Assembly: GCA_964016885.1 (NCBI GenBank)
Contig: OZ024756.1
Coordinates: 41,788,001-41,852,000, forward strand
Length of the DNA stretch: 64,000 nt
Source: Eledone cirrhosa
Taxonomy: Eukaryota
Reading direction: 5' to 3'
The notes beneath the pieces are model-generated. The model was not told where the DNA came from, did no database searches, and worked only from the letters and a program-made list of their open reading frames with translations. Positions 5,854-33,148 of the stretch are shown one piece after another (position 1 is the stretch's first letter; the number at the start of each line of letters is the position of its first letter). A program made the position numbers and the translations under genes.

Positions 5854-5939
5854 CTGTGTTGTTAAATTATGTGTTGTCACTGATGTAAAATATTGTTGTA
5901 TCTTCGTAGTTCGTTGCCTGGTTGTTCTGCGACTGGAAA
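5854..5939 (-). CDS. Properdin-like exon 11: Thr/Arg-rich tail (VSSRRTTRQRTTKIQQYFTSVTTHNLTTQ); further 3' exon(s) unresolved
   Basis: ttttttcag acceptor, gtatgt donor, open in the phase required by exon 10. Confidence 0.6.
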
Positions 5940-6680
5940 CTGAAAAAATAAACAACAGCAACTATAATAATTTGTTATCCTTTCAGGGTGTTGGATTGAC
6001 AGAATCGGTAGAGTGTCAGATAAAATACCATTGTGGTATTTGTTCTGGCTTTTTACATTCTCAGTTCAAATCCCACTACGGTCAACTTTACTTTCATTCT
6101 TCTGAGGTTGATCAAATAAAGTGGCAATCAAGTACTGGGGTTTATTTAACTCTTAAATATTTACATTACTCTATATATACTATTTTCAGGGTAAAGGATT
6201 TACCTCACATAATATCGAATCTATGAGATTTTTATGTTATTTATTTTGAGATAATATGAGATAATATTTATTTTGAACAGAATACTTCATTAGAAATAGG
6301 TTCACGAAAGGGTTAAAAGTTCAGTATGAGTGGCCAGTTATGGCTGGTTTGAACAGAAAGAGATGAGGGATTTCTGACCAGATACAGCCGCTAATGGGTT
6401 AAACAACTTTGCCCTTCTCCCAAATTTGTTGGCCTTGTGTCTAAATTAGAAATCAATATTTGATGCCACAGATTGGCAGAATTGGTAGAGGTTCGGTTAA
6501 AAATGCCCTAAGGAATACCATATGTCAATATGGCACCCCTACAATTCCCTCAGGAGTTACAGGTCCATACCACTGTAAAACATGGGCAGAATACTTCATT
6601 AGAAATAGGTTCACGAAAGGGTTAAAAGTTAGATATGTTAACAGACCCTTCTAAAAAGGGGTCATAATGCTGGTTCTTAC

Positions 6681-6734
6681 CTATCTTTTTACAGAAAGGT
6701 TGGTCAGCACATTTCCGTATTACTTCACTGGCAC
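6681..6734 (-). CDS. Properdin-like exon 10: TSR6 C-part (GASEVIRKCADQPFCKKI)
   Basis: 54-nt exon, tttcag/gtaaga, supplies the last two Cys of TSR6, phase 1/1. Confidence 0.8.
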
Positions 6735-7411
6735 CTGAAAAATATGGCGAGACACAGAAGATGAAAAGATTTGGTTTAGAGGGGAGGGGACTATTATAAC
6801 AGGTATAGAAAAGGTAAGAAGCGGAGGGTTTGGTTTAGAGGTGAGCAGATTATTGTAACAGGAAGGGTTCGGTTTAAAGGGGAGGGGACTATTGTAACAG
6901 GTATAGAAAAGGTAAGAAGAAAAAGAAGAAAAAAAACAGCTCTGTAATAAAAAAAGATGTTCAACTGTATGATTCCTCGAAATACGTGTTTGTCAGAACC
7001 AACAACACTGGATACGTTAAGAAAGTGTATGAAATGGAGGAAGAAAATCTACAGATACTATGTTTGTATGATCATATTTATTGTATAATACATATTTCAA
7101 TGACACCAGTTTTATAGTCATTATGCAATCATTACAACAGCAATTGACACCGCTGTGACATCAGATGTTAACACATTTATGTGAAGAAATTTGGGTAAGT
7201 TGATATGTGACAGGCAAATGCTGGCTTCCAAGTTTGTGAAATTCCAGTGAACATACGACTTGGCAAATATTTTTTTCTTCCTTTATTTTTCGTATGGCAT
7301 TGGTAACTATTTTCTAATTGGTGGATTCTGTAAACTCTAGGATGTGTTAATTAATTCAAATGTTGACAGCTAATAAATGTTGTGGTAAGGTTCAACTTAA
7401 GCTTTATCTGT

Positions 7412-7447
<36 letters not shown>

Positions 7448-7541
7448 TATATACATACATACCCCCATCACCATTTAATGGCTATTTTCCATGCTTGCAT
7501 ATGTTAGAGAGGCTGTCACATTTTGAGGCGACACAAGTCTG

Positions 7542-7594
<53 letters not shown>

Positions 7595-8360
7595 TCAGAT
7601 ACACACACACATATATGGTATGCATTTATTTACAGAGATATAAATATTTCTTAACAGTTGGACAGAAAACATTACATCATTTGAATAGTGAATGTAAATA
7701 TTTATGTCTGTGAGTGTGTATATGTGGTATACGTTACTGTATGTATATGTGTATTTGCATGCTTATCTATATGTATATATGTGTGTGAGCTTGTATATAT
7801 ATATATATGAGTTACTGTATATGTGAGCTGCTGTATTTATATGCAAGTTGCTGTATGTGGATTGGTGTAGGTGCCAAATTCCATTCTCTCTATATGTGTA
7901 ATACCAAGAGCATATATAATGCTAGGTGTATATATAACACCAGTGTATATATAACACCAGTGTATATATAACACCAGTGTATATATAACACCAGTGTATA
8001 TATAATACTAGTGTATATATAACACCAGTGTATATATAACACCAGTGTATATATAACACCAGTGTATATATAATACCAGTGTATATATAACACCAGTGTA
8101 TATATAACACCAGTGTATATATAATACTAGTGTATATATAACACCAGTGTATATATAACACCAGTGTATATATAATACCAGTGTATATATAACACCAGTG
8201 TATATATAACACCAGTGTATATATAACACCAGTGTATATATAACACCAGTGTATATATAACACCAGTGTATATATAACACCAGTGTATATATAACACCAG
8301 TGTATATATAACACTAGTGTATATATAACACCAGTGTATATATAACACCAGTGTATATAT

Positions 8361-8548
8361 AATTGTTTCTACTTTTGGCACAAGGCCAGCAATTACTCAG
8401 TGCATTACTGGTACTTTATTTTATCGACCCCGTAAGGATGAAAGACAAAGTCAACCTCGGCGGGATTTGAACTCAGATCGTAAAGGGACGTAACTATGCT
8501 GGAAAGCATGGCGTCCGACCCTCTACCGATACTGCCAATCCACCGCCC
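8361..8548 (-). mobile_element. tRNA-headed SINE (family 1), full length
   Basis: Reverse complement of GGCGGTGGATTGGCAGTATCGGTAGAG...GAGTTCAAATCC...CATCCTTACGGGGTCGATAAAATAAAGTACCAG...GTAGAAACAATT; inserted in the 19-bp minisatellite. Confidence 0.85.
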
Positions 8549-8816
8549 AATCCACCAGTGTATACATAACACCAGTGTATACATAACACCAGTGTATACA
8601 TAACACCAGTGTATATATAATACCAGTGTATATATAACACCAGTGTATATATAACACCAGTGTATTATATATACACTGGTATTATATATACACTGGTGTT
8701 ATATATACACTGGTGTTATATATACACTGGTGTTATATATACACTGGTGTTATATATACACTGGTGTTATATATACACTGGTGTTATATATACACCTAGC
8801 ATTATATATGCTCTTG

Positions 8817-8998
8817 ACGGTGGATTGGCAGTATCAGTAGAGAGTCGGACGCCATGCTTTCCAGCATAGTTACGTCCCTTTACGGTCTGAGTTCAAATCC
8901 CGCCGAGGTTAACTTTGCTTTCATCCTTACGGGGTCGATAAAATAAAGAACCAGTAATGTACTGGGTAATTGCTGGCCTTGTGCCAAAAGTAGAAACA
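8817..8998 (+). mobile_element. tRNA-headed SINE (family 1) with 16-bp TSD attatatatgctcttg
   Basis: A-box-like TGGCAGTATCAGTAGAG, B-box GTTCAAATCC; TSD at 8801-8816 and 8999-9014. Confidence 0.9.
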
Positions 8999-9107
8999 AT
9001 TATATATGCTCTTGGTATTACACATATAGAGAGAATGGAATTTGGCACCTACACCAATCCACATACAGCAACTTGCATATAAATACAGCAGCTCACATAT
9101 ACAGTAA

Positions 9108-9141
<34 letters not shown>

Positions 9142-9487
9142 AGCTCACACACATATATACATATAGATAAGCATGCAAATACACACATACATACAGTAAC
9201 GTATACCACATGTACCACATGTACTTTCCCTGGAGTGTCAGCTGTACTTTTACTAGAAAAGCTACTGACTGGTTTTAGGAATGAAGTAAGTTATTCAATG
9301 CTAACCATTACAATGTAGTCTGTCTCAGATGGTTTAACTTTTAACTACCAATTGACCAGATGGCAGCACCAGTTTCTGAAATATAGGAAATCACTAACCC
9401 CCCTCTCACCCCCACACACCCCCTGAAAAAGAAAAAAAAGAATCAAATCAAATAAAAACAACAACCAAACAGAATACAATTCTTTAC

Positions 9488-9625
9488 CTTCAGGACATGG
9501 TTTTCCTCCATGCTGACTTTTCGGACATGCACACTTTCTCATTCTACTTTCTGTGGCGTCGGGTAAATAACATTTGTCAGGAGAGCAATGAGTCCACTGT
9601 GACCACTGGCACCACTTACCATTAA
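9488..9625 (-). CDS. Properdin-like exon 9: TSR6 N-part ([46 protein letters not shown])
   Basis: WxxWxxW motif, cag/gtaaag boundaries, phase 1/1. Confidence 0.9.
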
Positions 9626-9727
9626 CTGGACACACGGAATAGAAGAAGAAAAGAGAAGAGAAGAAAGAAACATTTTAGATAAGGAATATATGTAGGACTA
9701 TCTCTCGGACTTTTAAGTGCTGAGAAT

Positions 9728-10580
9728 CATCATCACCACCATCACCAGCACCACCATCACCACCATCACCAGCACCACCATCACCACCATCACCAGCACC
9801 ACCATCACCAGCACCACCACCACCACCACCACCATCATCACCATCGTCACCATCACCATCACCATCATCACCATCGTCACCATCACCATCACCATCACCA
9901 GCACCATCACCAGCACCACCATCACCATCGTCACCATCACCATCACCACCATCACCATCACCAGCACCACCACCACCACCACCATCACCACCATCATCAC
10001 CATCGTCACCATCACCAGCACCACCATCACCACCATCACCAGCACCACCACCATCACCAGCATCACCATCACCACCACCAGCACCACCATCACCATCACC
10101 ACCATCACCAGCATCACCATCACCACCACCAGCACCACCATCACCACCATCACCATCACCACCATCACCACCATCACCATCACCACCACCAGCATCACCA
10201 TCACCACCACCAGCACCACCATCACCACCAGCACCACCATCACCACCATCACCACCATCACCACCATCACCATCACCACCATCACCACCATCACCATCAC
10301 CACCATCACCGCCATCACCATCACCACCATCACCACCATCACCAGCATCACCATCACCACCACCAGCACCACCACCAGCACCACCATCACCACCATCACC
10401 ACCATCACCAGTATCACCATCACCACCATCACCATCGTCATCATCATCATCATCACCATCACCACCACCACCACCATCACCATCATCACCATCGTCACCA
10501 TCACCATCATCACCATCACCATCACCACCACCACCATCACCAGCACCACCATCACCACCACCACCACCACCACTACCATC
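9728..10580. repeat. Cryptic (CAC/CAT/CAG)n trinucleotide tract
   Basis: Direct inspection; intronic. Confidence 0.95.
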
Positions 10581-10614
10581 CTCAACAGTATATATATAAA
10601 TATACTGTTAACAT

Positions 10615-10980
10615 CTTGTGTAAGTGAGTGTATATATATATACTGTGTAAGTGAGTGTATATATATATACTGTGTAAGTGAGTGTATATATATACTGTGT
10701 AAGTGAGTGTATATATATATACTGTGTAAGTGAGTGTATATATATACTGTGTAAGTGAGTGTATATATATACTGTGTAAGTGAGTGTATATATATACTGT
10801 GTAAGTGAGTGTATATATATACTGTGTAAGTGAGTGTATATATATACTGTGTAAGTGAGTGTATATATATATACTGTGTAAGTGAGTGTATATATATACT
10901 GTGTAAGTGAGTGTATATATATACTGTGTAAGTGAGTGTATATATGTATATACTGTGTAAGTGAGTGTATATAAATATAC
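10615..10980. repeat. 27-29-bp minisatellite (tactgtgtaagtgagtgtatatata)
   Basis: Direct inspection. Confidence 0.9.
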
Positions 10981-11072
10981 TGTTAACAATTTGTCCCAAG
11001 TGTGTATATATGTTAACATTCTGTACAAGTGTATATATAGATATGTGTATATGTTAACATCCTGTACAAGTG

Positions 11073-11106
<34 letters not shown>

Positions 11107-11154
11107 TGTTAACATCATGTACAAGTATATATATATAAACATTCTGTACAAGTG

Positions 11155-11189
<35 letters not shown>

Positions 11190-11387
11190 GTTAACATCAT
11201 GTACAAGTATATATATATATTAACATCCTGTACAAGTGTATATATATACACTTGTATAAGATGTTAATGACATGTTTATATACACTATATACATATATCT
11301 ATATACACTCACACAAGATGTTAACATATCTTTATATACACTTGTTTAAGATGTTAATGACATCTATATACAGTTGTACATGATGTT

Positions 11388-11802
11388 ATCATCATCACCA
11401 TCATCACCGTTTTACGTCCGTTCTTCCACGCTAACATGGGTTAGACGGGTTGTCCTGTTGTGTGCAGTGTCTGGTCGGCTGACCATGCCTTGCTCATACA
11501 GGAACTGATCTGGCTTGATTTCTACAGCTGGATGCCCTTCCTAACACCAACCTCATTTACAGTGAGTGCTGGGTGCTTTTTCGTGGAGCCTACACGTCCA
11601 CTTTACAGTGTGGGCTGGGTGCTTTTTTGCCGTGGCACCTCCACGACCACCTTGCGGTGGGGGGGGGGGGAGTGGGGGCGTATTGTTTATATGCTTCAGC
11701 ATGTACCCATGGGAGGTCGGGTACCCTGTATTACTGCGTGACGCCAGAAGTCACGGTCGTGTGTCATTGACTTTGAGAGGTGTAGTTGGGTAAGGTCGGC
11801 TT
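11388..11802 (-). mobile_element. 5'-truncated RTE-clade LINE 3' end (family 2)
   Basis: Minus strand reads ADLTQLHLSKSMTHDRDFWRHAV (DL…DRxxWR RTE C-terminus), then a 3'UTR ending …GGACGTAAAACGGTGATGATG. Confidence 0.65.
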
Positions 11803-11803
11803 T

Positions 11804-11835
<32 letters not shown>

Positions 11836-11844
11836 GTCGGCTTT

Positions 11845-11886
<42 letters not shown>

Positions 11887-12059
11887 CTTGTACAGGATGT
11901 TAATATATATATATACACTTGTACATGATGTTAACATATATATATATATATTAACATCATGTACAAGTGTATATAGATGTCATTAACATCTTAAACAAGT
12001 GTATATAGATATATGTTAACATCTTGTGTAAGTGTATATAGATATATGTATATAGTGTA

Positions 12060-14718
12060 TATAAACATGTCATTAACATCTTATACCAGTGTATATAAAC
12101 ACGTCATTAACATCTTATACAAGTGTATATAAACACGTCATTAACATCTTATACAAGTGTATATAAACACGTCATTAACATCTTATACAAGTGTATATAA
12201 ACATGTCATTAACATCTTATACAAGTGTATATAAACACGTCATTAACATCTTATACAAGTGTATATAAACATGTCATTAACATCTTATACCAGTGTATAT
12301 AAACATGTCATTAACATCTTATACCAGTGTATATAAACATGTCATTAACATCTTATACAAGTGTATATAAACATGTCATTAACATCTTATACAAGTGTAT
12401 ATAAACACGTCATTAACATCTTATACCAGTGTATATAAACACGTCATTAACATCTTATACAAGTGTATATAAACACGTCATTAACATCTTATACAAGTGT
12501 ATATAAACATGTCATTAACATCTTATACAAGTGTATATAAACATGTCATTAACATCTTATACCAGTGTATATAAACATGTCATTAACATCTTATACAAGT
12601 GTATATAAACATGTCATTAACATCTTATACCAGTGTATATAAACACGTCATTAACATCTTATACAAGTGTATATAAACACGTCATTAACATCTTATACAA
12701 GTGTATATAAACACGTCATTAACATCTTATACAAGTGTATATAAACACGTCATTAACATCTTATACAAGTGTATATAAATATATGTCATTAACATCTTAT
12801 ACCAGTGTATATAAATATATGTCATTAACATCTTATACCAGTGTATATAAATATATGTCATTAACATCTTATACAAGTGTATATAAATATATGTCATTAA
12901 CATCTTATACCAGTGTATATAAATATATGTCATTAACATCTTATACAAGTGTATATAAATATATGTCATTAACATCTTATACCAGTGTATATAAACATGT
13001 CATTAACATCTTATACAAGTGTATATAAACATGTCATTAACATCTTATACCAGTGTATATAAACATGTCATTAACATCTTATACCAGTGTATATAAACAT
13101 GTCATTAACATCTTATACAAGTGTATATAAACATGTCATTAACATCTTATACCAGTGTATATAAACATGTCATTAACATCTTATACAAGTGTATATAAAC
13201 ATGTCATTAACATCTTATACAAGTGTATATAAACATGTCATTAACATCTTATACAAGTGTATATAAATATATGTCATTAACATCTTATACCAGTGTATAT
13301 AAATATATGTCATTAACATCTTATACAAGTGTATATAAATATATGTCATTAACATCTTATACCAGTGTATATAAACAGGTCATTAACATCTTATACCAGT
13401 GTATATAAACACGTCATTAACATCTTATACAAGTGTATATAAACACGTCATTAACATCTTATACAAGTGTATATAAACACGTCATTAACATCTTATACAA
13501 GTGTATATAAACATGTCATTAACATCTTATACAAGTGTATATAAACACGTCATTAACATCTTATACAAGTGTATATAAACATGTCATTAACATCTTATAC
13601 AAGTGTATATAAACATGTCATTAACATCTTATACCAGTGTATATAAACATGTCATTAACATCTTATACAAGTGTATATAAACATGTCATTAACATCTTAT
13701 ACAAGTGTATATAAACATGTCATTAACATCTTATACCAGTGTATATAAACACGTCATTAACATCTTATACAAGTGTATATAAACACGTCATTAACATCTT
13801 ATACAAGTGTATATAAACATGTCATTAACATCTTATACAAGTGTATATAAACATGTCATTAACATCTTATACCAGTGTATATAAACATGTCATTAACATC
13901 TTATACAAGTGTATATAAACATGTCATTAACATCTTATACCAGTGTATATAAACACGTCATTAACATCTTATACAAGTGTATATAAACACGTCATTAACA
14001 TCTTATACAAGTGTATATAAACACGTCATTAACATCTTATACAAGTGTATATAAATATATGTCATTAACATCTTATACCAGTGTATATAAATATATGTCA
14101 TTAACATCTTATACCAGTGTATATAAATATATGTCATTAACATCTTATACAAGTGTATATAAATATATGTCATTAACATCTTATACCAGTGTATATAAAT
14201 ATATGTCATTAACATCTTATACAAGTGTATATAAATATATGTCATTAACATCTTATACCAGTGTATATAAACATGTCATTAACATCTTATACAAGTGTAT
14301 ATAAACATGTCATTAACATCTTATACCAGTGTATATAAACATGTCATTAACATCTTATACCAGTGTATATAAACATGTCATTAACATCTTATACAAGTGT
14401 ATATAAACATGTCATTAACATCTTATACCAGTGTATATAAACATGTCATTAACATCTTATACAAGTGTATATAAACATGTCATTAACATCTTATACAAGT
14501 GTATATAAACATGTCATTAACATCTTATACAAGTGTATATAAATATATGTCATTAACATCTTATACCAGTGTATATAAATATATGTCATTAACATCTTAT
14601 ACCAGTGTATATAAATATATGTCATTAACATCTTATACCAGTGTATATAAACAGGTCATTAACATCTTATACCAGTGTATATAAACAGGTCATTAACATC
14701 TTATACCAGTGTATATAG
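12060..14718. repeat. 34/36-bp minisatellite (gtcattaacatcttatac[a/c]agtgtatataaacat) with ~1276-bp higher-order duplication
   Basis: Variant pattern and ORF track recur at a 1276-bp offset (12727 vs 14003; 13223 vs 14499). Confidence 0.95.
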
Positions 14719-15086
14719 TTCTGAAACTAGTTTTAGAAGAGTAATGAGAGAAGTTGTACAACTGTTTCAATACAAGACAGTATTGAAAGTAATCCAACCA
14801 ACCAGCCATTTCCAGTTCTTACACAACATGCTAACAACATATTTATATAAACTCTAATATAAGCAATAACATGCTAGCAACATATTTATATAGACTGCGA
14901 CAAGGTAAAACACTTATGCAATTAAAATGGTAAGAATTCTCTTTAGAAATAACAAACCAGCTGCAATTCTGTGTTTATAAAGGAAGTCATCAAAGATGAC
15001 AGAAATAAAGAGAATGTTTTCAAAAGAAACTTGGAATCATGGAATGTATTATATTTAACAAACTCAAGACTTCATTATTTCTGATA

Positions 15087-15275
15087 AAGGGCAGTGGATT
15101 GGCAGTATCTGTAGAGGCTCGGACACCATGCTTTGACACATAGAGTTACGGCCCTTGCCATTCTGAGTTCAAATCCCGCCGAGGTTAACTTTGCCTTTCA
15201 TCCTTACGGGGTCGATAAAATAAAGTACCAGTAATCTACTGATTAATTACTGGCCTTGTGCCAAAAGTAGAAACA
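15087..15275 (+). mobile_element. SINE family 1 with 13-bp TSD attatttctgata
   Basis: TSD at 15074-15086 and 15276-15288. Confidence 0.88.
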
Positions 15276-15540
15276 ATTATTTCTGATAGCAGAGAAACGT
15301 TGTCAACCATTAATTTTCTTGCTTTTATTTATTCACATTCTTCATAGATTTGTCACTAGAAGACTTGTAAGGATAGGCAAGATGGTGAACAATGCCAAAC
15401 AAGACAGGATATTGACTTCCTCCCTCAATATTTGCATCTCGTCATTCACTCATTTCAGGAAAATAATTCATTGGACGGAAGCAATATAAAACATGAACAA
15501 AAAAATCCAAAAAACGTTGGTGTAACTGTCTTCAAGTCTA

Positions 15541-15787
15541 TTAACCCTTTAGCATTTAAACCGGCCATATCCAGCCAGAATTCTCTCACCTCTTTCTGTT
15601 CAAACCTGCTGTAACTGGCCACTCATACTGATATTAAGGTATTGTTCTCAAAAATATAATAACATTGAAATAAATAACACTGAAATCTCATAGATTCGAT
15701 ATTATGCGAGATAATTATGTGAAGTAAAGCCTTTACCACGAAAATACAATAGTATATATATAGAGTAATGTAAATGCTAAAGGGTTA
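15541..15787. mobile_element. piggyBac-type MITE (TTAA-CCCTTTAGCATTTA…TAAATGCTAAAGGG-TTAA)
   Basis: Terminal inverted repeats and TTAA at both ends; related copies at 23815-24005, ~19985-20157, ~50240-50801. Confidence 0.75.
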
Positions 15788-15789
15788 AT

Positions 15790-16060
15790 GCAGGTTAGGA
15801 GTTAGATGACCTCGTGGAGGAGACATTGCTCCAAGGGATGACAAGGGAGATGCACTGGAACAATGACTCCACCTCACAGAGCTCACACTTGCAGGTAGCC
15901 AAGCCAACTCCACTCTGATAACAGTGAGTAGGTATGTAGTCGTGGGGCCAAGAATGCCAAAAATCTCCATTGCCACAGGCTCGACCAGAAACCTATGAGA
16001 GAGCAGCCAATACTTTGACTGCCCTCTCTGGCCTGACAACCAGCAAAGTCTGGGCTGCTA
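15790..16060 (-). mobile_element. Degenerate CRE-like (RLE non-LTR) 3' remnant
   Basis: EPVAMEIFGILG… then frameshifted LFQCISLVI, resembling the P.A.E..G..G…LFQRLS.AIQRGN motif; similar remnant at ~63540-63720. Confidence 0.45.
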
Positions 16061-16317
16061 GCTTCAAAACAAAAAGGTTTCTAATGGTTTTACAATATGA
16101 TTAAACTATCTGTGACCTTCAAGATGAAAGCAAATGATATATGTTGTACTTGAAACACAAACAACTAAATACCCCATGGTGAGATACAGCAACACACACA
16201 CACACACACCTCATTTATTATACACACACATATATATTACACACACACACGTGACTCAAAAATTGAAAAATCAGTTGCTGTTTTAGTTAAAGCATTGAAA
16301 TGACTTTCATTTTAAGA

Positions 16318-17120: not shown

Positions 17121-17144
17121 ATATAGGAACGATCGACTTTTTTG

Positions 17145-17345
17145 TCAAATCGGACCGAGGGAACAATGTTTCCGTTGGTCTTTCCAATTGCTAATACTAT
17201 CTATCGGTCGCAACTCCAGGTAGAAGGAGCAACGTGAAATAAAGTGTCTTGTTCAAGGACATAACGCATCGCCTGGTCCAGGAATCGAACTCACAACTTT
17301 ACGATTGCGAATACAATTCTCTAACCACTCAGCCACACGCCTTCA
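17145..17345 (-). mobile_element. Second tRNA-derived SINE family (head GCGTGTGGCTGAGTGGTTAG...GAGTTCGATTCC)
   Basis: A and B boxes on the minus strand followed by a gtccttgaacaagacactt core; related remnant at ~22840. Confidence 0.65.
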
Positions 17346-17729: not shown

Positions 17730-17918
17730 CTGGACAGTCAATATTATTGTAACATTCCCGTTTCTCCATTGATCGGCCCCGACACTGCTTACCGTAATAA
17801 CGGGGTTTAGGTTTTGAACATGTTCGGTGACGTGTTTTAAATCCTCGAATCCCACTACACCTCCGGGCATTACAGCTACCAAACGCACTCCAGTTTGACC
17901 AACTCCCATGGATGGATA
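17730..17918 (-). CDS. Properdin-like exon 8: TSR5 (HGSWSNWSAFGSCNARRCSGIRGFKTRHRTC...CYNNIDCP)
   Basis: TSP1 repeat with extended first loop, 189 nt, phase 1/1. Confidence 0.93.
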
Positions 17919-19182: not shown

Positions 19183-19356
19183 CTGGACAAGCTCTTCGTC
19201 CTCGACATTCTAGCTTCTCTGTTTTCTGTCCTCTACAATAGCTACCACCATGTTGTGGTTTGGGGCTGTTGCATTCCCGGTTTCGAATGCGAAACGCGGT
19301 GCCACATGTAACTGGACATGGATTCCATGAACTCCAAAGAGACCAGCCCCCATCCT
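19183..19356 (-). CDS. Properdin-like exon 7: TSR4 (DGGWSLWSSWNPCPVTCGTAFRIRNRECNSPKPQHGGSYC...CRGRRACP)
   Basis: Canonical TSP1 repeat, 174 nt, phase 1/1. Confidence 0.93.
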
Positions 19357-20289: not shown

Positions 20290-20460
20290 GTTGACATTTG
20301 ACTTTGACACACTTTTTTACTTGATAGCTGTTACCTCCACACGGTCTACCTCCATATCTAGGGGCCGGTTTGTCACAAATACGAACCCTTTTCATACTAC
20401 CAACACCACAGCTTGCACTGCACGATGACCAAGGATTCCAGTTACCCCATCTACCATTTA
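20290..20460 (-). CDS. Properdin-like exon 6: TSR3 (VNGRWGNWNPWSSCSASCGVGSMKRVRICDKPAPRYGGRPC...CVKVKCQ)
   Basis: Canonical TSP1 repeat, 171 nt, phase 1/1. Confidence 0.93.
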
Positions 20461-20961: not shown

Positions 20962-21132
20962 CTGGACACGGCTTTGTATTGCAGGCTGTTAACTCTGAAC
21001 TGCTGCCTACACAGTCTTTACCATCATTTGCTGGGGGTGGGAAGTTACAAATACGGCTACGAGAATGTCGACCCCCACCACACGTCATGCTGCACGGCTT
21101 CCATTGGTACCAGGGTCCCCAGTTACCATCCA
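20962..21132 (-). CDS. Properdin-like exon 5: TSR2 (VDGNWGPWYQWKPCSMTCGGGRHSRSRICNFPPPANDGKDC...CNTKPCP)
   Basis: Canonical TSP1 repeat, 171 nt, phase 1/1, tag/gtaag boundaries. Confidence 0.93.
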
Positions 21133-21505: not shown

Positions 21506-21690
21506 TCATCATCATCGTATATGAGTAAAACTCAGTCTCCTGTCTAACCCATGCTAGTGTGGAAAATGGACGTTAAACGATGATGATATAAATATATATG
21601 GGTTGTTTTGTTTGAGACGACCAGAGCTGGTCTTGGAGAGGTTGGCATGAAAAGGGTTAAACAGACCGAGTCTTAATAATTGTTTCTTAC

Positions 21691-21846
21691 CTGGACAGTA
21701 ACTTTTTAACATACATGGCTGGAAATGGCGGTTCCGATAATCAGTCGGCTCACATGTAGGACACTGTCGATACTTTGACCGCCATCCAGCACCACATGTA
21801 ACAGTACACTCAGTCCATTCTCCCCAGGGGGCAAGGGTAGGCTTCA
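21691..21846 (-). CDS. Properdin-like exon 4: TSR1 (PWGEWTECTVTCGAGWRSKYRQC...CMLKSYCP)
   Basis: WxxWxxCxxTCG and RxR motifs; phase 1/1; tandem tagcag acceptor. Confidence 0.9.
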
Positions 21847-22364
21847 CTGCTAGAAGAGAAGAGGAGAAAAATATATACTTTTTTTAAAATACTGCATGTC
21901 GTTTAGTAATGTGTAAACATACATACACACACACATATATATATATATATATACACACATATGCATGAAAATGTGTGTGTATTTATATATATATGGAAAA
22001 TGCGTGAGATCCTTAGTACAGTAAGGTATATTTGAAAAAAGGAAAAGAATGACTTCAATTGTAGTTGTTATTCTATAACAATTTAATTCTATAATTTTGT
22101 TATGTAGATCATATATGTTGGGCGGAAAGGTGTTTTAAAATCCTGGTTAACATTCTGAAGAACTTTCTCATTCGTCGGTGGCGATTGTCAAACTGATCTA
22201 AAATGATAATTTGGGTGTGTGTCTGGGAAACCACAAATTATGACAGTACTCTATGTATGGGAAGAAGCAGAGTAGGTATAGAGAGAGGTAAAATCCAACC
22301 ACGATGCCAAGTGGTCTCAGCTTGTATTCAGCAAACCTTCTCAGAACACATAAAAACAACTTAC

Positions 22365-22440
22365 CGTCAGGAGGTGGAAGAGACAATTTTTTCCAGATCT
22401 CACAAGACGTACACTGATAAGAGTTCTTGCCAACCTTGTG
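22365..22440 (-). CDS. Properdin-like exon 3: C-half of TB-like domain plus Pro linker (HKVGKNSYQCTSCEIWKKLSLPPPD)
   Basis: tttcag acceptor, gtaagt donor, phases 0/1; CxxC completes the 6-Cys domain. Confidence 0.85.
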
Positions 22441-23432
22441 CTGAAATTGAATAATTATCAATAGAGGATATATCAGAAAACAAAAAATGGATAATTAACA
22501 TACATACACATACAGACACAACATACATACAAACACAAACATAGATACACAGACATACACGCGAACACAGACATACAGCACGCACTCGTACAGACACAAA
22601 CACACACACTCATAAACACACACACGTACATACACACACATGCACATACACACACACTGATAGAGACACAAACACTTACACACATCCTTGCCAAGTTACA
22701 ACCAATTGCAAGGTATTCCCACCTTTCAAAGGTGAAAAACGTAACGTACAGCTCACACCTGTGCAGGTTTAGCTGGGCCCTTATGAGGTTTCACGGGTGT
22801 TTTAACGACAGGGACCCCAAGTTATATCATCAAATACAATGTGAAATGAAGTGTCTTGTTCAAGAACACTACATACTGCCCGATTCAGAAACAGAACCCA
22901 GGTAATCAACACAACATTTCAGACCTGCCAACCTCTAAAAACCCAAACGGAGAGTACCCTGAAAAAACTGCCCCCCAAAACGGGGAGAAACGAGGCAAAA
23001 TTGGAAGATTTTACATAATGAAAGCTATACCCATTTTCACAAGAGAAGACATCTCCCACCACTCCAAAGTGGATGGGAGATGTCCCCGTCAGATGGGGAG
23101 ACTTGAAAGGTCTGTGTTTAGATGGCAAATATAACCCCCGCCTCCCATTTTACTATCGATCTTTTAGTCCCATATTGCTCCGCTTATATTTGAGTGTATA
23201 CAGTAATATTTCTATAGAGATACAAGTCAAACATAAGCTATCATTATTAGTGTTGTACTACCTTTCATTGTTACGAGGGTCGATATAATAAAGTACCAGT
23301 CTTGCACTGGGGTCGATTTCATCGACTTTCCCCTCGCCCAAAATTGCTGGCCTTGTGCCTAAATGTGAAACCATTATTAGTAAAGTAAATAGATGATAGC
23401 AATAGAAAAGGAGCAGAAAAGGGTTAACTTAC

Positions 23433-23563
23433 CACCTTTCTAGTCCAACCAGAACCTCCTCGATCACTACAACATTGAATGGCTGTGGAATAAACTTGTC
23501 TTTTTAAGGGTCTTTTACAAACCCCTCTTCGTTTACGGAATTTTTTATAACACACTACAGAAC
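23433..23563 (-). CDS. Properdin-like exon 2: N-half of TB-like domain (GSVVCYKKFRKRRGVCKRPLKRQVYSTAIQCCSDRGGSGWTRKV)
   Basis: tttcag acceptor, gtaagt donor, phases 1/0; C-x10-C-x14-CC pattern. Confidence 0.85.
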
Positions 23564-24454
23564 CTGAAAAAAATATATAGTTATTCTTTTTTTTCATAAT
23601 TACACGAATGTTTAGTATGAGAGGTGGGGCGGAGTTTAGAGCTGTTTCTATCAACCATACTTATTTCCCTCGCACTATAGAATATTTCAATAGAATGTAT
23701 ACAAATGAACTTCATTTATATAAAAAGGGGGGAATAAACAAAAAGGTGAGAGAAGACCCACACACTCAATCACAAACCCCAACAAAAGGCACTACAGTTT
23801 CTCTTTAATCATTTTTAACCCTTTAGCATTTGAACTGGCCATATCCGGCCAGAAATCTCAAACTCCCTTATGTTAAGGTATTGTTCTCAAAATAAATATT
23901 AAAATCTCATAGATTCGATATTATGTGAGTTAATTATGCGAGATAAAGCCTTTACCATGAAAACACAATAGTAAATATAGAGTAATGTAAATGGTAAAGG
24001 GTTAAAGCAGCATTGCCACAGGTAATAGCGAGGTTAAGATACTGGACTAACCAAACAATTGAAATAAACCACAGAATCATACGTTTCGGTGGGAGATTGT
24101 ATCCCTACACATCAAAAATGTAGTTTTTCCTTGTATACATTGATATATTACACACAAACACACACTAAATGATCCCCTTTAGTCATCGTTGGTTATGGGT
24201 TTGCATCTGGAACGTTCTTCTCCAAGGTGTGTGCCTAGACAAGGTATTTTGAAGAAGACCACCAGTCGGCCATACACACCAGTCTCTCCTCTCCATGACA
24301 TCGATGTTGTCCAAAGGAGGGGCAAAGGATGATACAGCTTGAAACCAGCTAACGGCTTTCAAATGTTTATTTGTAAACATCGTACATTATTTGATATACA
24401 ACCCCATATATATACACATATATATATATAGAGAGAGGGGGGGGGGGTGATATG

Positions 24455-24804
24455 TAATTGGAGTCTTTAAGAAGGTTATTTACAATAATTTCTAACTTTA
24501 CTGGGTTTCATGATTTTCTGAAGTCAAGAGAGAAATGCTTTTAGTTTCATACAAACAATATGGCTGAAATTGGTATATGTTTGAAGTATTATTTAATTGG
24601 TTGAAGAAGATCACGTGATTAGACATCGACTCTTTTTGCAGAAAAGTGACTCAAGTTTAAAGTATAATTTGATAGACATCAAGTTTGGCAGTATTTTCAC
24701 ACAAAAAAAAAAAAAATTAATTAAAAATAAGGGCAGTGCCCCAGCATGGCCTCAGCCGGATGGCTGGAACAGATAAGAGAGTAAACCTTCTTAAAGACTC
24801 CAAT
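24455..24804. mobile_element. MITE-like element with ~22-bp TIRs
   Basis: aattggagtctttaagaaggtt … aaccttcttaaagactccaatt. Confidence 0.5.
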
Positions 24805-25524
24805 TGTATTTTCAACTTCTGTTCCCTATATTTTTACCCGTGTAGGATATATTAAATAAACCTTACTTTCGAATATATATATTTATACATACATGTGCAC
24901 AACTGATGTACATATATATATATATATAAATCAGGATGGATTTAGTTTGAAACTAGTTAGACCATTCCTCAACAGAGTACTCAATACTTGGCGTAGTAGA
25001 GTATGGTTTACGCCCCTTTACGAGCTGAGTTCAAATCTCGACGGGGTTAACTTTGCCTTTCATCCTTACGAGGTCGACAATAAAGTACCAGTAATTTACT
25101 GGGGTAATTGCTGACCTTGTGCCAAAAGTAGAAACAATTATAAAAAGTCGAGACCCGGACTGCTGAGTTCTTGGCTTTTGAAACGGCAAGAGCTCAGCCT
25201 TCGGGGTCCTGACTCTTTATAATATATATACATGTAAAACAAGATCTTTATATAAAGAACTTGTTATAACGGCTTGTAACTCCTTCATTCTTTTACTTAT
25301 ACCTGCTCCGCTTGAACAATCTAAATATTAAATCTTCCTCTAATATTTAACTCTGCTAACCCCAGCATTGAGCACACTGCTTCGGCTATTGGCCTTTAGT
25401 AATCTGATCACACCTCTGTATCTCTCTGCTTCTTCCTCTCCTACGATACTTATACCCTATTATATACACACACACACATACACAGACATATATATATATA
25501 TATACAGTATATATATATATATAT

Positions 25525-25725
25525 AACGAAGGAAATGTGGTAAGGAACCAGGTGGACCATAACGCACCAAAGTACTCAATACTTAGGGTAGTAGAGTGGG
25601 TAATAGGAACGAGTAGGACCCCGACGGCTGAGCTCAAGCCGTTTCGACGGCTAATTCTGGACTCAGTCCAGAATTAGCCGTCGAAACGGCTTGAGCTCAG
25701 CCGTCGGGGTCCTACTCGTTCCTAT
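25525..25725. mobile_element. Penelope-like fold-back mini-element in (TA)n (perfect 61-bp-arm hairpin)
   Basis: Arms 25603-25663 and 25665-25725 are exact reverse complements; homologue at 57780-57980. Confidence 0.6.
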
Positions 25726-26127
25726 ATATATATATATATATATATACGTAACCAAACCAACCTGCGCACTTCGTCGAGTGCTCCAATCGGCATACCGAGG
25801 TATTGGTATACAACCAACATATACTCAATATATATATATAACTAATTCACACGACCTTATACTCACCATACATATGTATGTATGTGTTCTAGATATGATT
25901 TATACCCCCTCCCCACCGTTCCCTTGCCTCCATTCATCGTTATTTCGTTATCTTCCTTAACTTTGCACTCAGTAACCCAAGAAACGATTTCTGCTCCCCC
26001 CCCCCCCCCACAACAACAACAACAATCTGCCACCTGATACAAACAATCAGCGCTTCTAGTGTGTTTTGAATATAATTCTTCCAGGCAGACACACACACAA
26101 ACAAACATGTACACTACACAGATACAT

Positions 26128-26158
<31 letters not shown>

Positions 26159-26807
26159 TAGAGAGATACACACACACACACAGATACATAAACACATACA
26201 AATACACACATAAACACATACAAATACACACACAAACACACGCATGCACACATACAAATACACACACACACAAACACACAGGCACACACCAATGCTGATC
26301 TTTGACCTCAACCTAAATTACACAAGTGACAACACCAATTTCAGTCCCAATTTCTAACCCCGAAAGTTTAGTCCATTCTTTTATCTTTAGTCCATCATTC
26401 AAACCACGCGATGGTGTCTCTGTGCGGTTACTTGACCTGCTAGAAATAAGTAGCAAGTCTCTTTCATATCACAGAACCTTCCCCGACCCCACCCTGCGAA
26501 AATAAAACATCGAAGAAGGATACAACAGGGAATATGGTCATAAAAAAACATTATTAAAGGGAAATGGAAAGAAGAAAAAGAAAAAAGGGATCAACAAACA
26601 CTAGAACTGAGTGACCCCTCAGCTGCGCCCTACGGACAAGATAGCAATGGCGTTATTGCAGTTTATGGCCTGAGACACCCACTGCAACAGTCACCCCACC
26701 TCACGGGGCTCCCTCCTCAAGCTTATCACCGTCTTTTCGATTTTATGGAGGAAACCAGCAGTGACGGAACCAAGGACTCTAGAGGTCTAGACAGAGATCG
26801 ATACAAA

Positions 26808-27080
26808 GAGGAAGTGGTCGGTTAGTCCACCCCTGTGGTAATGTGGGGACCAAGGACACCAGAGGTCTTGACGGAGACCAGTAGACAGAGGAAGCGGTTG
26901 GTTAGTCCACCCCTGTGGTAATGTGGGGACCAAGGACACCAGAGGTCTTGACGGAGACCAGTAGACAGAGGAAGTGGTTGGTTAGTCCACCCCTGTGGTA
27001 ATGTGGGGACCAAGGACACCAGAGGTCTTGACGGAGACCAGTAGACAGAGGAAGCGGTTGGTTAGTCCAAGGACACCAGA
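26808..27080. repeat. 80-bp tandem repeat, ~3.3 copies
   Basis: gttagtcca at 26821/26901/26981/27061. Confidence 0.9.
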
Positions 27081-27209
27081 GGCATGAAACACTATTCAAG
27101 AGTAAGAACCAGGCAGAGACTGTATTTGTACAAGAAACAGTGTTGTTTGTAGAACGTATGAGGATATCAGGTATCAACTTCTCGCATTTCCCGTTATTCA
27201 GGAACTAAG

Positions 27210-27350
27210 CTCGGTTGATACCATTACAACATGGCCTCTCGGTTGATACCATTACAACATGGCCTCTCGGTTGATACCATTACAACATGGCCTCTCGGTT
27301 GATACCATTACAACATGGCCTCTCGGTTGATACCATTACAACATGGCCTC
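27210..27350. repeat. 28-bp tandem repeat x5 (tcggttgataccattacaacatggcctc)
   Basis: Direct inspection. Confidence 0.9.
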
Positions 27351-27620
27351 TTAATGGTTTAATGATTGAGCTATTTTGTTTGGCAATAACAGCTTTGATG
27401 AAGTTGTCAGGACCTTCACTGCAAACAAGGGTAGCGGTGGTTACTTCCAAGCAACCCACCCCAGCCCTCGTCCACCGCGGCGGTGGCAGTGACGTGACAT
27501 GAGGTCTTATGTCAGTACCTCCACTGCAAATGAAGGTAGCAGCAGTTACCTCCCAACAAACTCCTACCCTCGTCCACGGGGCTCCTTCAGGCGGGGTGTA
27601 GCGGCAGCAGCAGCAGTAGC

Positions 27621-27682
<62 letters not shown>

Positions 27683-28173
27683 CAACAATAGTAGTAGTAG
27701 CACTAGCAGCAACAGTAATAATTGTTTCTACTTTTGGCACAAGGCCAGCAATTACTCAGTACATTACTGGTACTTTATTTTATCGACCCCGTAAGGATGA
27801 AAGGCAAAGTTAACCTCGGCGGGATTTGAACTTAGTAGTAGTGATGGGATGGGGCTTGTATTTATATATACATATTTTATATAAATATATATACGTGTAT
27901 ATATATATATACTCGTATATATATTTCCATTCTCTCTAAACAGACAATAGCGCTTCTTCTCTCCACCCTCTCTCCCCAGTCCCACCTCATCTCACCCTAC
28001 CCCATGTGGAACGCGTGGAATTCACATTAACTAGGTTGGCATCAAATTACAATCTTGTAAAGTGTGGTTAGTCCTGCGTGAATTCTGTGAATGGAAACTC
28101 GGCTGTGAATGAAAAAAATCTCAGCAATTGTCTTAGAAAAATAAAAAAATAAAAAAACCACTACGACAAGTTG

Positions 28174-29015
28174 GTGTTTGATATGGAAATATAGGAGAGG
28201 ATGGCGAACTTGGCAGAGTGGTTAGAGCGTCTTTTGGGTGTTTGATATGGAAATATAGGAGAGGATGGCGAACTTGGCAGAGTGGTTAGAGCGTCCTTTT
28301 GGGTGTTTGATATGGAAATATAGGAGAGGATGGCGAACTTGGCAGAGTGGTTAGAGCGTCTTTTGGGTGTTTGATATGGAAATATAGGAGAGGATGGCGA
28401 ACTTGGCAGAGTGGTTAGAGCGTCTTTTGGGTGTTTGATATGGAAATATAGGAGAGGATGGCGAACTTGGCAGAGTGGTTAGAGCGTCCTTTTGGGTGTT
28501 TGATATGGAAATATAGGAGAGGATGGCGAACTTGGCAGAGTGGTTAGAGCGTCTTTTGGGTGTTTGATATGGAAATATAGGAGAGGATGGCGAACTTGGC
28601 AGAGTGGTTAGAGCGTCCTTTTGGGTGTTTGATATGGAAATATAGGAGAGGATGGCGAACTTGGCAGAGTGGTTAGAGCGTCTTTTGGGTGTTTGATATG
28701 GAAATATAGGAGAGGATGGCGAACTTGGCAGAGTGGTTAGAGCGTCCTTTTGGGTGTTTGATATGGAAATATAGGAGAGGATGGCGAACTTGGCAGAGTG
28801 GTTAGAGCGTCTTTTGGGTGTTTGATATGGAAATATAGGAGAGGATGGCGAACTTGGCAGAGTGGTTAGAGCGTCCTTTTGGGTGTTTGATATGGAAATA
28901 TAGGAGAGGATGGCGAACTTGGCAGAGTGGTTAGAGCGTCCTTTTGGGTGTTTGATATGGAAATATAGGAGAGGATGGCGAACTTGGCAGAGTGGTTAGA
29001 GCGTCCTTTGGGTGT
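28174..29015 (+). repeat. 64/65-bp minisatellite x13 made of a SINE 5' head (A-box TGGCAGAGTGGTTAGAGCG)
   Basis: The last unit continues into a SINE body (AGTTCAAATCCC…GTCGATAAAA…GTACCAG). Confidence 0.9.
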
Positions 29016-29134
29016 GTTCCAAGTCTCTCTGCTCTCTCTCAGTTCAAATCCCACCGAGGTCAACTTTGTCTTTTATCCATTCGTGGTCGATAAAAAAAGT
29101 ACCAGTTAAGTACTGGGTCGATTTTACCTATATA

Positions 29135-29189
<55 letters not shown>

Positions 29190-29387
29190 CATTCTCTGGA
29201 AGAAGTCTGCTATATTCAGACCTGGAGAGGAGATGGGGTTCCGCCAGGTTTCTAAAATGCCCAAGAACCGCCGACGGTCAGTACAGTGACCCCTTACCAT
29301 TCCGGTGGGGGTTACGAGACAATACATACATGAAAATACACGAAGGGTTTAGCAGTTGTTTCATTAAAACCGGTCAGTGATTAAAAT

Positions 29388-30870
29388 TATGTATGTAAAT
29401 GTATGTATGTATGTATGTATGTAAATGTATGTATGTATATGTATGTGTATGTATGTAAATGTATGTATGTATATGTATGTAAATGTATGTATGTATGTAT
29501 GTATGTGTATGTATGTATGTAAATGTATGTATGTATATGTATGTAAATGTATGTATGTATATGTATGTATGTATGTGTATGTATGTAAATGTATGTATGT
29601 ATATGTATGTATATGTATGTATGTATATGTATGTAAATGTATGTATGTAAATGTATGTATGTAAATGTATGTATGTATATGTATGTAAATGTATGTATGT
29701 AAATGTATGTATGTATATGTATGTATGTATATGTATGTATATGTATGTATGTATATGTATGTATGTATATGTATGTAAATGTATGTATGTAAATGTATGT
29801 ATGTATATGTATGTAAATGTATGTATGTATGTATGTAAATGTATGTATGTAAATGTATGTATGTATATGTATGTAAATGTATGTATGTAAATGTATGTAT
29901 GTATATGTATGTATGTATATGTATGTATATGTATGTATGTATATGTATGTATGTATATGTATGTAAATGTATGTATGTAAATATATGTATGTGTATGTAT
30001 GTAAATGTATGTATGTATATGTATGTAAATGTATGTATGTATGTATGTATGTATGTATATGTATGTATGTATGTAAATGTATGTATGTATATGTTTGTAT
30101 GTATGTATATGTATGTATGTATATGTATGTATGTATGTATATGTTTGTATGTATATGTATGTATATGTTTGTATATATATGTATTAATATGTATATATAT
30201 GTATGTATATGTTTGTATGTATATCTATGTATGTGTATGTATGTATATGTATATATATGTATGTATATGTTTGTATGTATATGTATGTATATGTTTGTAT
30301 GTATATGTATGTATATATATGTATGTATATGTATGTATATATATATATATGTATGTATATGTTTGTATGTATATGTATGTATATATATGTATGTATATGT
30401 TTGTATATATGTATGTATATGTTTGTATATATATGTATTAATATGTTTGTATATATATGTATGTATATGTTTGTATAGATATATGTATGTATATGTTTGT
30501 ATATATATGTATATGTTTGTATGTATATGTATGTATATATATGTATGTATATGTTTGTATGTATATGTATGTATGTTTGTATGTATTTGTATGTATATGT
30601 ATGCATATATATGTATGTATATGTATGTATATTTATGTATGTAAATGTTTGTATATATATATGTATGTATATGTATGTATATTTATGTATGTAAATGTTT
30701 GTATATATATATGTATGTATTTGTATGTATATATATGTATGTAAATGTTTGTATATATATATATGTATGTATATGTATGTATATATATGTATGTATATGT
30801 TTGAATGTATATATTTGTATGTATATGTATGTATATATATGTATGTATATGTTTATATGTATATATATAA
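29388..30870. repeat. (TATG)n-based compound microsatellite
   Basis: Direct inspection. Confidence 0.95.
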
Positions 30871-30972
30871 TGGAAAATTAGGTATATTTTTGTCTATTTG
30901 TTCTTCACACTTATAATAGCTATATATATATATATGTGTGTGTGTGTATATATATGTATGTGTGTGTGTGTG

Positions 30973-31005
<33 letters not shown>

Positions 31006-31119
31006 GTATGTGTGTGTGTGTGGTCCATGGTGACATCAGAATAATGAATGAACTTCAACATCAACAGAATAAATAAATACATAAATAAATCTTCACCAAT
31101 AAACAAACCAACAGAGGGA

Positions 31120-33034
31120 AGCAACAACTACCACACCACCACCAGCTGTACTACTACAGCAACAACTACCACCACCAGCTGTACTACTACAGCAACAACT
31201 ACCACACCACCAGCTGTACTACTACAGCAACAACTACCACCACCAGCTGTACTACTACAGCAACAACTACCACCACCAGCTGTACTACTACAGCAACAAC
31301 TACCACACCACCAGCTGTACTACTACAGCAACAACTACCACTACAACCACCACAACAACCACTACAACCACCACAACAATCACTACAACCACAAGCACCA
31401 CACAACAACCACTACAACTACAACCACCACAACAACCACTACAACCACAACAACCACTACAACCACACCAACCACTACAACTACAACAACCACCATGACA
31501 ACAGCCACAACAACCACTACAACTACAACCACAACAACCACTACAACCACTACAATTACAACCACCACTACAACCACAACAACCACTACAACCACAACAA
31601 CCACTACAACCACCACAACAACCACAACCACCACGACAACAGCCACAACAACCACTACAACCACTACAATTACAACCACCACTACAACCACAACAACCAC
31701 TACAACCACCACAACAACCACTACAACTACAACAACCACTACAACCACTACAACAACCACAACCACCACGACAACAGGCACAACAACCACTACAACCACT
31801 ACAATTACAACCACCACAACAACCACTACAACCACTACAACCACTACAACAGCCACAACCACCACGACGACCACTACAACAACCACCACAACAACTACAA
31901 CCACCACTACAACCACAACAACCACTACAACCACAACAACCACTACAACTACAACCACCACAACAACCACAACCACCACGACAACAGCCACAACAACCAC
32001 TACAACAACACCCACTACAACAACTACAACCACTACAACCACTACAACCACTACAACTACAACCACAACAACCACCACGACAACAGCCACAACAACCACT
32101 ACAACCACGACAACAGCCACCACAACAACAACCACCACAACAACCACAACTACCACCCCAACATCAACCACCACAACCACAACTACCACCCCAACAACAA
32201 CCACCATCACCACAACCACAACTACCACCCCAACAACAACCACCACAACCACAACTACCACCCCAACAACAACCACCACAACCACAACTACGACCCCAAC
32301 AACAACCACCACCACCACAACCACAACTACCACCCCGACAACACCAACCACCACAACAACCACAACACCACCACAACAACACCAACCACCACCACAACAA
32401 CACCAACCACCACAACAACCACCACAACTACCACCCCAACAACAACCACCACCACCACAACCACAACTACCACCACAACCACACCAACCACCACAACAAC
32501 CACAATTACCACCACAACAACACCAACCAGCACTACCACCACAACAGCAACTACCACCACCACAACAACCACAACTACCACCACAACAACCCCAACTACC
32601 ACCACCACAACAACCACAACTACCACAACAACAACACCACCAACCACCACCACAACAACACCAACCACCACAACAACCACAACTACCACCACAACAACAA
32701 AACCAACCACAAAAACAACAACTACCACCAAAACAACAACTACCACCACAACAACACCAACCACCACCACAACAACAACAACTACCACCACCACAACAAC
32801 ACCAACCACCACAACACCAACTACCACCACAACAACACCAACCACGACAACAACAACACCAACCACCACAACACCAACTACCACCACCACCACAACCACC
32901 ACCACAACAACTACCACCACCACTACAGCAACTACCACCAACCACCACCACAACAACCACAACTACCACCACCACTACAGCAACTACCACCAACCACCAC
33001 CACAACAACCACAACTACCACCCCCAACAACAAC
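31120..33034. repeat. Cryptic (ACC/ACA/ACT)n tract in intron 1 of the properdin-like gene
   Basis: Direct inspection. Confidence 0.9.
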
Positions 33035-33075
33035 TATATATATATGTGTGTGTGTAAAAAGATCTTCTGACTTAC

Positions 33076-33148
33076 CCTCTAATTGTAAAACCATCTGGAA
33101 GAAGATAAGTAAAAAGATGAGACAGATGAAAAAACGATGTGTGTCCAT
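33076..33148 (-). CDS. Properdin-like gene exon 1: signal peptide MDTHRFFICLIFLLIFFQMVLQLE(G)
   Basis: ATG at 33148, hydrophobic signal-peptide core, donor GAGG|gtaagt phase 1 matching next exon. Confidence 0.75.

Follow-up and report, generated by a model that had tools for sequence, protein, structure and literature searches.

Vertebrate properdin (CFP; PDB 9u62_P, 6rus, 6s0b) is built from a signal peptide, a six-Cys TB domain and six thrombospondin type 1 repeats (TSRs). In the human protein, according to two structural papers, a thumb (residues 328-336) and the index finger of TSR6 encircle the C-terminal helix of C3b and contact Bb, TSR4 lacks the third Trp, and a Cys132-Cys170 bond joins TSR1 to TSR2 (PMC10087229, PMC6713926). 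The second paper further assigns most of the C3b site to TSR5, a basic repeat lying on an acidic patch of C3b, and reports that changes at the Gln343 and Tyr414 sites weaken C3b binding about 15-fold (PMC6713926). Hemicentin, coadhesin, SCO-spondin and thrombospondin-1 carry arrays of canonical TSRs, with a spacing that is nearly always 3/10/11 and without an N-terminal TB domain; long arrays of this kind score high by repeat count. Here we describe a properdin-like gene on the minus strand of a 64,000-base stretch of the Eledone cirrhosa genome (contig OZ024756.1, positions 41,788,001 to 41,852,000), called the window in the following and numbered from its first base. We read the gene product, with a probability of about 45%, as a surface-coating scaffold of the properdin lineage that shares ancestry with properdin and lacks the clamp on the C3 convertase found in vertebrates.

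Gene structure and predicted protein

The gene has 12 coding exons spanning 33148-4616, and their 492-codon frame contains a single stop, at its end. Eleven of these exons (33148 to 5854) had been proposed as phase-consistent in an earlier note on this DNA, and all of them are there, with AG/GT ends and matching phases that join the reading frame. Exon 1 (33076..33148, like all others on the minus strand) contains the ATG and a predicted signal peptide (residues 1-24), and is 80% identical to residues 1-25 of an Octopus vulgaris isoform (P0003). The first part of the TB domain (C-x10-C-x14-CC) is encoded by exon 2 (23433..23563), which runs from phase 1 to phase 0, and the CxxC end with a linker by exon 3 (22365..22440). 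Exon 3 has a second in-frame acceptor at 22434, but the relatives favour 22440, which yields the C-x10-C-x14-CC-x21-CxxC spacing of the earlier note. TSR1 to TSR5 occupy one exon each (exons 4 to 8: 21691..21849, 20962..21132, 20290..20460, 19183..19356 and 17730..17918), and TSR6 is split between exon 9 (9488..9625) and exon 10 (6681..6734). Exon 11 (5854..5939) encodes a Thr/Ser-rich tail and closes with a phase-0 GT donor, so that the gene could extend further 3'. We rejected the idea that the gene ends by read-through of exon 11, because a twelfth exon (4616..4672), beyond the range given in the earlier note and comprising an AG acceptor, the final 18 codons and a TAG, matches relatives. 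The C-terminus of P0003 matches 4672-4619 (tblastn, 61% over 18 residues, E 0.38). We infer this splice pattern from the splice signals together with the relatives.

The predicted protein is identical to P0003 at 400 of 491 aligned residues (81.5%) and to an Argonauta hians protein (P0002) at 336 of 486 (69.1%). The identity to P0003 shows that the gene is not a chance assembly of exons. A genome search with the TB exon gave a single match (four candidates scored); the gene is real and single-copy. A 1,667-base contig that encodes a 505-residue relative (P0007) suggests a spliced transcript built in the same way.

The domain order is signal peptide, TB, six TSRs and a 47-residue Thr/Ser-rich tail, as had been proposed. 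Hydropathy peaks at residue 6, and a model of the O. vulgaris isoform P0001 shows a helix at residues 2-24. There is no transmembrane segment, because the highest 19-residue hydropathy past residue 30 of the 492-residue frame is only 0.29, and the protein is predicted to be secreted. No Ig, EGF, vWD, Sema, protease or transmembrane domain lies around the TSRs, and none follows 3' of exon 11 before the gene ends at residue 492. In exon-wise Pfam searches, TSP_1 scored over the cut-off for TSR1-5 and fell short of it in the TSR6 exon. In exon 2, TB was found at E 0.0027 and PF18487 at E 0.0035, neither reaching the cut-off, and the orthologues returned TSR families only. The mature chain contains 17.5% Lys and Arg, with a net charge of +56 and an isoelectric point (pI) of 9.7, in keeping with the Arg/Lys-rich character noted before. 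The two O. vulgaris isoforms differ at their ends: P0001, like vertebrate properdin, stops soon after TSR6, five residues beyond its last Cys, whereas P0003 bears a Thr/Ser-rich tail.

Relationship to vertebrate properdin

A one-way search of the PDB gave properdin as the best match (E 1.7e-56). The full-length model (P0001) has a predicted local distance difference test score (pLDDT) of 81.6 and a predicted template-modelling score of 0.30, and does not fix the relative placement of the domains. Therefore, the properdin entries that head the Foldseek matches owe their place to sequence and to individual repeats rather than to a ring.

More specific evidence came from the individual repeats. 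We cut these by alignment from 20 lophotrochozoan and 23 fish proteins and compared them with 487 background repeats of 70 other matches. For the discrete features, six family-like proteins were removed, leaving a background of 64 proteins and 455 repeats. The window protein has the same number of TSRs as properdin, and features that are rare elsewhere occur in register. The C3-C4 loop of TSR1 is short (2 residues), as in 20/20 lophotrochozoan and at least 21 of 23 fish proteins and in 27 of 413 background repeats. TSR4 carries CPVTCG (lophotrochozoan 6/20, fish 16/45, background 6/455). In TSR5, with a spacing of 4/12/11, the widened C1-C2 segment is present in all 20 lophotrochozoan and all 23 fish rows and in 4 of 413 background repeats. 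Its 12-residue C2-C3 segment is found in four cephalopods among the 20 lophotrochozoan rows, in 23/23 fish and in 15/413 background repeats, and also in an annelid, a brachiopod and a bryozoan, while the C-Y-x4-C end occurs in 5/20, 22/23 and 1/403, respectively. TSR6 closes with C-x3-P-x-C (16/19, 22/23 and 7/442). Three of the signatures listed in the earlier note (CPVTCG, C-Y-x4-C and C-x3-P-x-C) thus stand, but PQHGG proved unstable (4/20, 2/45 and 9/455) and was discarded. As a caveat, most fish have the short loop in TSR2 too and a TSR6-type end in TSR3 (40/45).

Raw profile scores showed no diagonal and tracked how canonical a repeat is; a diagonal appeared only after double normalisation. 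Profiles of the fish repeats treated in this way select the matching position for TSR1, TSR2 and TSR5. Their diagonal of 7.0 ranks 12th among 720 orders and is reached by one of 135 control windows, which belongs to a family-like spider protein. TSR5 is the repeat nearest to fish properdin, the window score being 3.8 background standard deviations. Discrete features match at TSR1, TSR4, TSR5 and TSR6, and the profiles back TSR1 and TSR5.

The TB domain was modelled with a pLDDT of 90.6 and, as modelled, is an N-terminal six-Cys TB domain like that of properdin. Foldseek gave its top probability (0.90) and its top template-modelling score (0.62) to properdin 8q6r_C, at E 0.54; no match was below E 0.001. 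When 50 Foldseek chains were re-aligned, eight properdin entries came first (Z 6.3-5.5). The model fits the properdin TB domain best (Z 6.3, root-mean-square deviation 2.2, 50 residues aligned), ahead of follistatin (Z 4.9) and fibrillin (Z 3.8). A profile made from invertebrate TB domains only placed three properdin chains above fibrillin and LTBP1 (E 0.13-0.21). Exon 2 alone had no PDB match, and two TB clusters in the ESM Atlas (0.76-0.77) serve as a lead only. By sequence, the link from this TB domain to properdin is weak.

Since rare features stand at the same positions in TSR1, TSR4, TSR5 and TSR6 and the TB model fits the properdin TB domain best, common descent with vertebrate properdin is likely. 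It is possible in principle that shuffling brought TB and TSR exons together on two separate occasions and that there is no kinship beyond the shared modules. The TSR exons are indeed phase 1-1 modules, the TB similarity is weak, and public labels of the family are mostly 'coadhesin-like' or 'hemicentin-1'. However, double shuffling would have to produce the same repeat count and order, rare features at four positions and the same type of TB domain. In addition, a FastTree analysis of the six repeats in register (67 rows) set fish properdins and the family apart from 43 other arrays (0.946), as did a quick mixture tree of 40 rows (Shimodaira-Hasegawa-like approximate likelihood-ratio test 94). 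A more careful tree has no supported grouping of this kind, but on balance we consider independent assembly very unlikely.

Despite this kinship, the protein departs from vertebrate properdin in several places. The TSR6 insert that forms the index finger (31 residues in human) is absent here, as the earlier note had suggested, and in all 20 lophotrochozoan rows; the C3-C4 segment of TSR6 is canonical, compared with 20-27 residues in fish. The TSR5 thumb has 4 residues, against 9-11 in fish (23/23) and 9 in human; the earlier note had counted it as a properdin match. The disulphide between TSR1 and TSR2 is missing from the window protein and from the lophotrochozoan rows (0/20; fish 22/23). TSR4 retains its third Trp (20/20; fish 1/45), and TSR6 has an additional Cys pair in exon 9 (20/20; fish 0/23). 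TSR2 has the canonical 3/10/11 spacing, and TSR3 is canonical too, unlike in vertebrate properdin. Like properdin, the protein is predicted to be secreted without a transmembrane segment and to have little after TSR6, the Thr/Ser-rich tail being an extra. The split of TSR6 over two exons is not supported as a shared mark: the intron lies here in phase 1 after about 46 codons, whereas human properdin is split in phase 2 after 38 residues. Because the insert is absent, the thumb short, the Trp kept and the TSR1-TSR2 link missing, the protein is not a full member by the structural definition of properdin, though it is likely kin. Of the proposal that this is a true properdin orthologue, descent from a properdin ancestor thus remains likely, but the loops that grip C3b are absent or short.

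A number of results weigh against our reading. The careful tree (24 rows, LG+C20) contains no supported grouping of fish and lophotrochozoan proteins; a single background row sits next to the fish, and background rows make up one side in 48% of 200 bootstrap trees. A grouping of the TSRs with TSR1-6 of CFP in order was not recovered: TSR3 and TSR4 gave no positional profile signal. The reverse profile test was weaker (rank 37/720, reached by 9/135 controls, the top two family-like). The signatures were chosen after inspection of the sequence, the rows are related, and the 64 background proteins are partly redundant. For the TB domain, the comparison of our profile with the fish one reached an hhalign probability of 8% (E 0.004), and Pfam assigned the 14 TB rows to follistatin-N (3), TB (3) and PF18487 (2). 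The head-to-tail oligomer of properdin is held by TB-TSR4 and TSR1-TSR6 contacts, and their residues are only partly conserved here: among those named for the human protein in PMC6713926, Leu47 is matched by a Leu, and Leu58 and Leu275 are not. Finally, basicity is much weaker outside the cephalopods, and binding of polyanions may therefore not be what the family does.

A family across the Lophotrochozoa

A protein search with P0001 collected 223 proteins from 1,754 candidates, and the matches described next are among the best 120 of these 223. Among the matches listed, proteins covering 93-100% of the query come from a scallop, a limpet, an abalone, pulmonate snails and a freshwater mussel, and also from two nemerteans, a brittle star and several fish (as properdins). 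Mollusc and nemertean members are 40-47% identical to P0001. Hemicentin-type arrays among the listed matches align over at most 83% of P0001, and two further listed proteins (P0071 and P0084) are full-length plain TSR arrays without TB, 32-35% identical. A TB profile built from 14 invertebrate rows retrieved 27 proteins out of 1.84 billion. We looked up ten proteins (nine of the 27 and P0072), the named ones being from Mya, Lamellibrachia, Lingula and Watersipora; no vertebrate properdin was recognised among the 27, nine of which were looked up.

The family thus ranges over bivalves, snails, nemerteans, an annelid, a brachiopod and a bryozoan (Mizuhopecten, Patella, Haliotis, Lymnaea, Biomphalaria, Mya, Lineus, Tubulanus, Lamellibrachia, Lingula and Watersipora), with variants in the echinoderms Amphiura and Apostichopus. 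A protein of the spider Trichonephila has the same repeat register but no TB domain. The family is not specific to cephalopods. Its lophotrochozoan members share repeat register and TB type with the window protein; they are far less basic, their tails are often acidic with Ser-Gly, and some have five TSRs. The cephalopod orthologues (XP_029647574, O. vulgaris CAI9737754 and GAB1601890) have the same domains and tail as the window protein. Isoelectric points lie between 5.7 and 8.3 in fish properdins and between 5.6 and 9.3 in non-cephalopod mollusc members. High basicity is therefore a cephalopod trait and not a family trait, and we dropped it as a mark of the family, for which the earlier note had used it. 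There seems to be a second paralogue in bivalves.

The tails bear on a different role. Ser-Gly in an acidic context is the usual mark of glycosaminoglycan attachment, and such a site is present in the tail of 17 of 33 invertebrate family members. In contrast, 21 of 23 fish properdins end at most four residues after TSR6 (the other two were mis-cut by the script). These proteins might accordingly be matrix or adhesion scaffolds of properdin ancestry with no link to complement, which would bind glycans or growth factors and in many relatives carry a glycosaminoglycan chain. TB domains elsewhere, as seen in the structural comparison, belong to fibrillin, LTBP and follistatin, and four relatives (P0053, P0126, P0149 and P0118, including two bivalve proteins and one from a sea cucumber) have two or three TB domains. 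However, no Ser-Gly site is found in the window protein or in three other cephalopod sequences, which have the Thr/Ser-rich tail instead, and the features shared with properdin fall in the ring-forming core (TB, TSR1 and TSR4-6). We therefore regard a pure matrix role as unlikely.

Database names are labels, not tests, but they show that the properdin label is already on cephalopod and some bivalve entries. Octopus sinensis XP_029647574 is called 'properdin' in RefSeq; it belongs to the same cluster as P0001, in which 'hemicentin-1', 'thrombospondin-1' and 'BAI1-like' also occur. Entries from Argonauta (GAB1601890), Mya and Tubulanus are labelled 'properdin-like'. In a literature search that covered few subscription journals, where much of comparative immunology is published, we found no paper that describes the TB and TSR family, examines the labels of the cephalopod entries or tests a protostome properdin; this negative is accordingly weak. 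A squid cephalotoxin study mentions properdin only for a TSR (PMC3349304), and no properdin was found in the text of a snail C3 paper (PMC13365339) or of a report on octopus haemocyte C3 (PMC4199593). Three further papers liken a sea-slug 'TSR-TM' class to properdin (PMC7663992), mention a sea star contig similar to properdin (PMC4503460), and give, among tabulated changes in expression, a gene of Biomphalaria under the label Properdin, a possible member of the family (PMC13619432).

Possible function, genomic setting and meaning

With one of the two loops that grip C3b absent and the other shortened, the protein likely coats charged surfaces rather than stabilising a convertase in the vertebrate manner. 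It would be secreted into the haemolymph or matrix and could bind polyanions (microbial glycans, sulphated host glycans or damaged cells) through the Arg/Lys-rich faces of its TSRs; the net charges of +56 overall and +11 in TSR5 support surface binding. By analogy with properdin, it may form head-to-tail oligomers, perhaps rings, through TB-TSR1 and TSR4-6. Any assistance to C3-based opsonisation may be loose at most. The thumb and index finger, which hold C3b and Bb, would be later gains of the vertebrate (or chordate) lineage.

It is also conceivable that the protein is a working properdin: despite its short thumb and missing index finger, it would bind the C3b of cephalopods and use the concave face of TSR5 to stabilise a convertase of C3b and factor B. 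TSR5 is the repeat closest to fish properdin and keeps the 12-residue C2-C3 segment and the C-Y-x4-C end, and the human TSR5 is the repeat that carries most of the C3b site (PMC6713926). Against this, Phe stands opposite human Gln343 and His opposite Tyr414, the two sites named above. Residue mismatch alone is a weak argument, however, because the human contact residues vary among fish properdins too (TSR5 alignment). A properdin has moreover been reported from amphioxus, judging from a title in the reference list of PMC13255059 (pmid 28366782).

The genome of E. cirrhosa contains thioester-protein exons at several loci. One of them (G000:C18, 37.3 Mb) has a GCGEQ site and a PVIH motif. It shares 85% identity with Argonauta C3, and that protein in turn finds human C3 as its best PDB match (E 3.6e-128). 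On these sequence criteria the locus is identified as C3, and C3 genes are present in the genome, as a working properdin would need. The last 45 residues of Argonauta C3 have a net charge of +5 and extend five residues beyond the last Cys; the patch is acidic in human C3, so the very basic TSR5 would not complement this end, at least in the one cephalopod C3 examined. The C-terminal 143 residues gave no PDB match, and the C-terminal domain was not alignable to human C3. Two exons found in a search for the NTR family were read as netrin-like and rejected as C3 C-termini. Factor B was not identified in a vWA search of the genome, which was filled by 150 other vWA exons. Together with the absent index finger and the 4-residue thumb, these points make a working properdin rather unlikely, and the complement amplification regulator implied by the earlier note is not borne out by the two loops.

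The searches for complement partners also turned up a thioester-protein gene in two near-identical copies, some 360 kb from each other (C1, 441.6 Mb and 441.98 Mb; L005, L006, L013 and L014), either a recent duplication or an assembly duplicate. Further thioester-protein loci are at C18 43.4 Mb, C5 48.2 Mb, C4 281.6-282.0 Mb and C1 325.8 Mb. More than 60 near-identical vWA exons lie in tandem on a single small contig, at C107 10-152 kb, with spacings of about 1.6 and 2.8 kb.

Within the window, the gene is preceded by another in the same direction (44376-56725, minus strand) with coiled-coil and low-complexity exons. Its exon at 51008-50793 has a weak Pfam match to CCDC66 (E 0.0044, below the cut-off), and our guess is a CCDC66/CSPP1-like centrosomal protein. 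The intron between exons 9 and 10 holds an inverted duplicate of about 500 bases (7860-8400 and 8640-9210), and in both copies a tandem array of short units is accompanied by a common repeat element. Downstream of the gene there is a direct duplication of about 400 bases (2601-3020 and 3417-3830). Long open frames run through the long minisatellite arrays (11990-14720, 28160-29000 and 46350-49170), but nothing suggests that they code for protein.

The broadest claim that could be made is that properdin predates the split of protostomes and deuterostomes and regulates complement in molluscs, the cephalopod protein forming rings and promoting C3b deposition through TSR5 alone, with thumb and index finger as later additions. 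We consider this rather doubtful as a whole. If true, it would mean that the proteins labelled 'coadhesin-like' or 'hemicentin-1' across the Lophotrochozoa are mislabelled properdin orthologues. The significance is tempered by the fact that the name is already on cephalopod and some bivalve database entries, and the function proposed here is predicted. Even so, if a gene of the properdin lineage is shared by molluscs, annelids, nemerteans, brachiopods and bryozoans, the scaffold would go back to the ancestor of the bilaterians. Such a gene, a natural version without the C3b-gripping loops, would make it testable whether a ring scaffold and surface binding came first and convertase stabilisation later.

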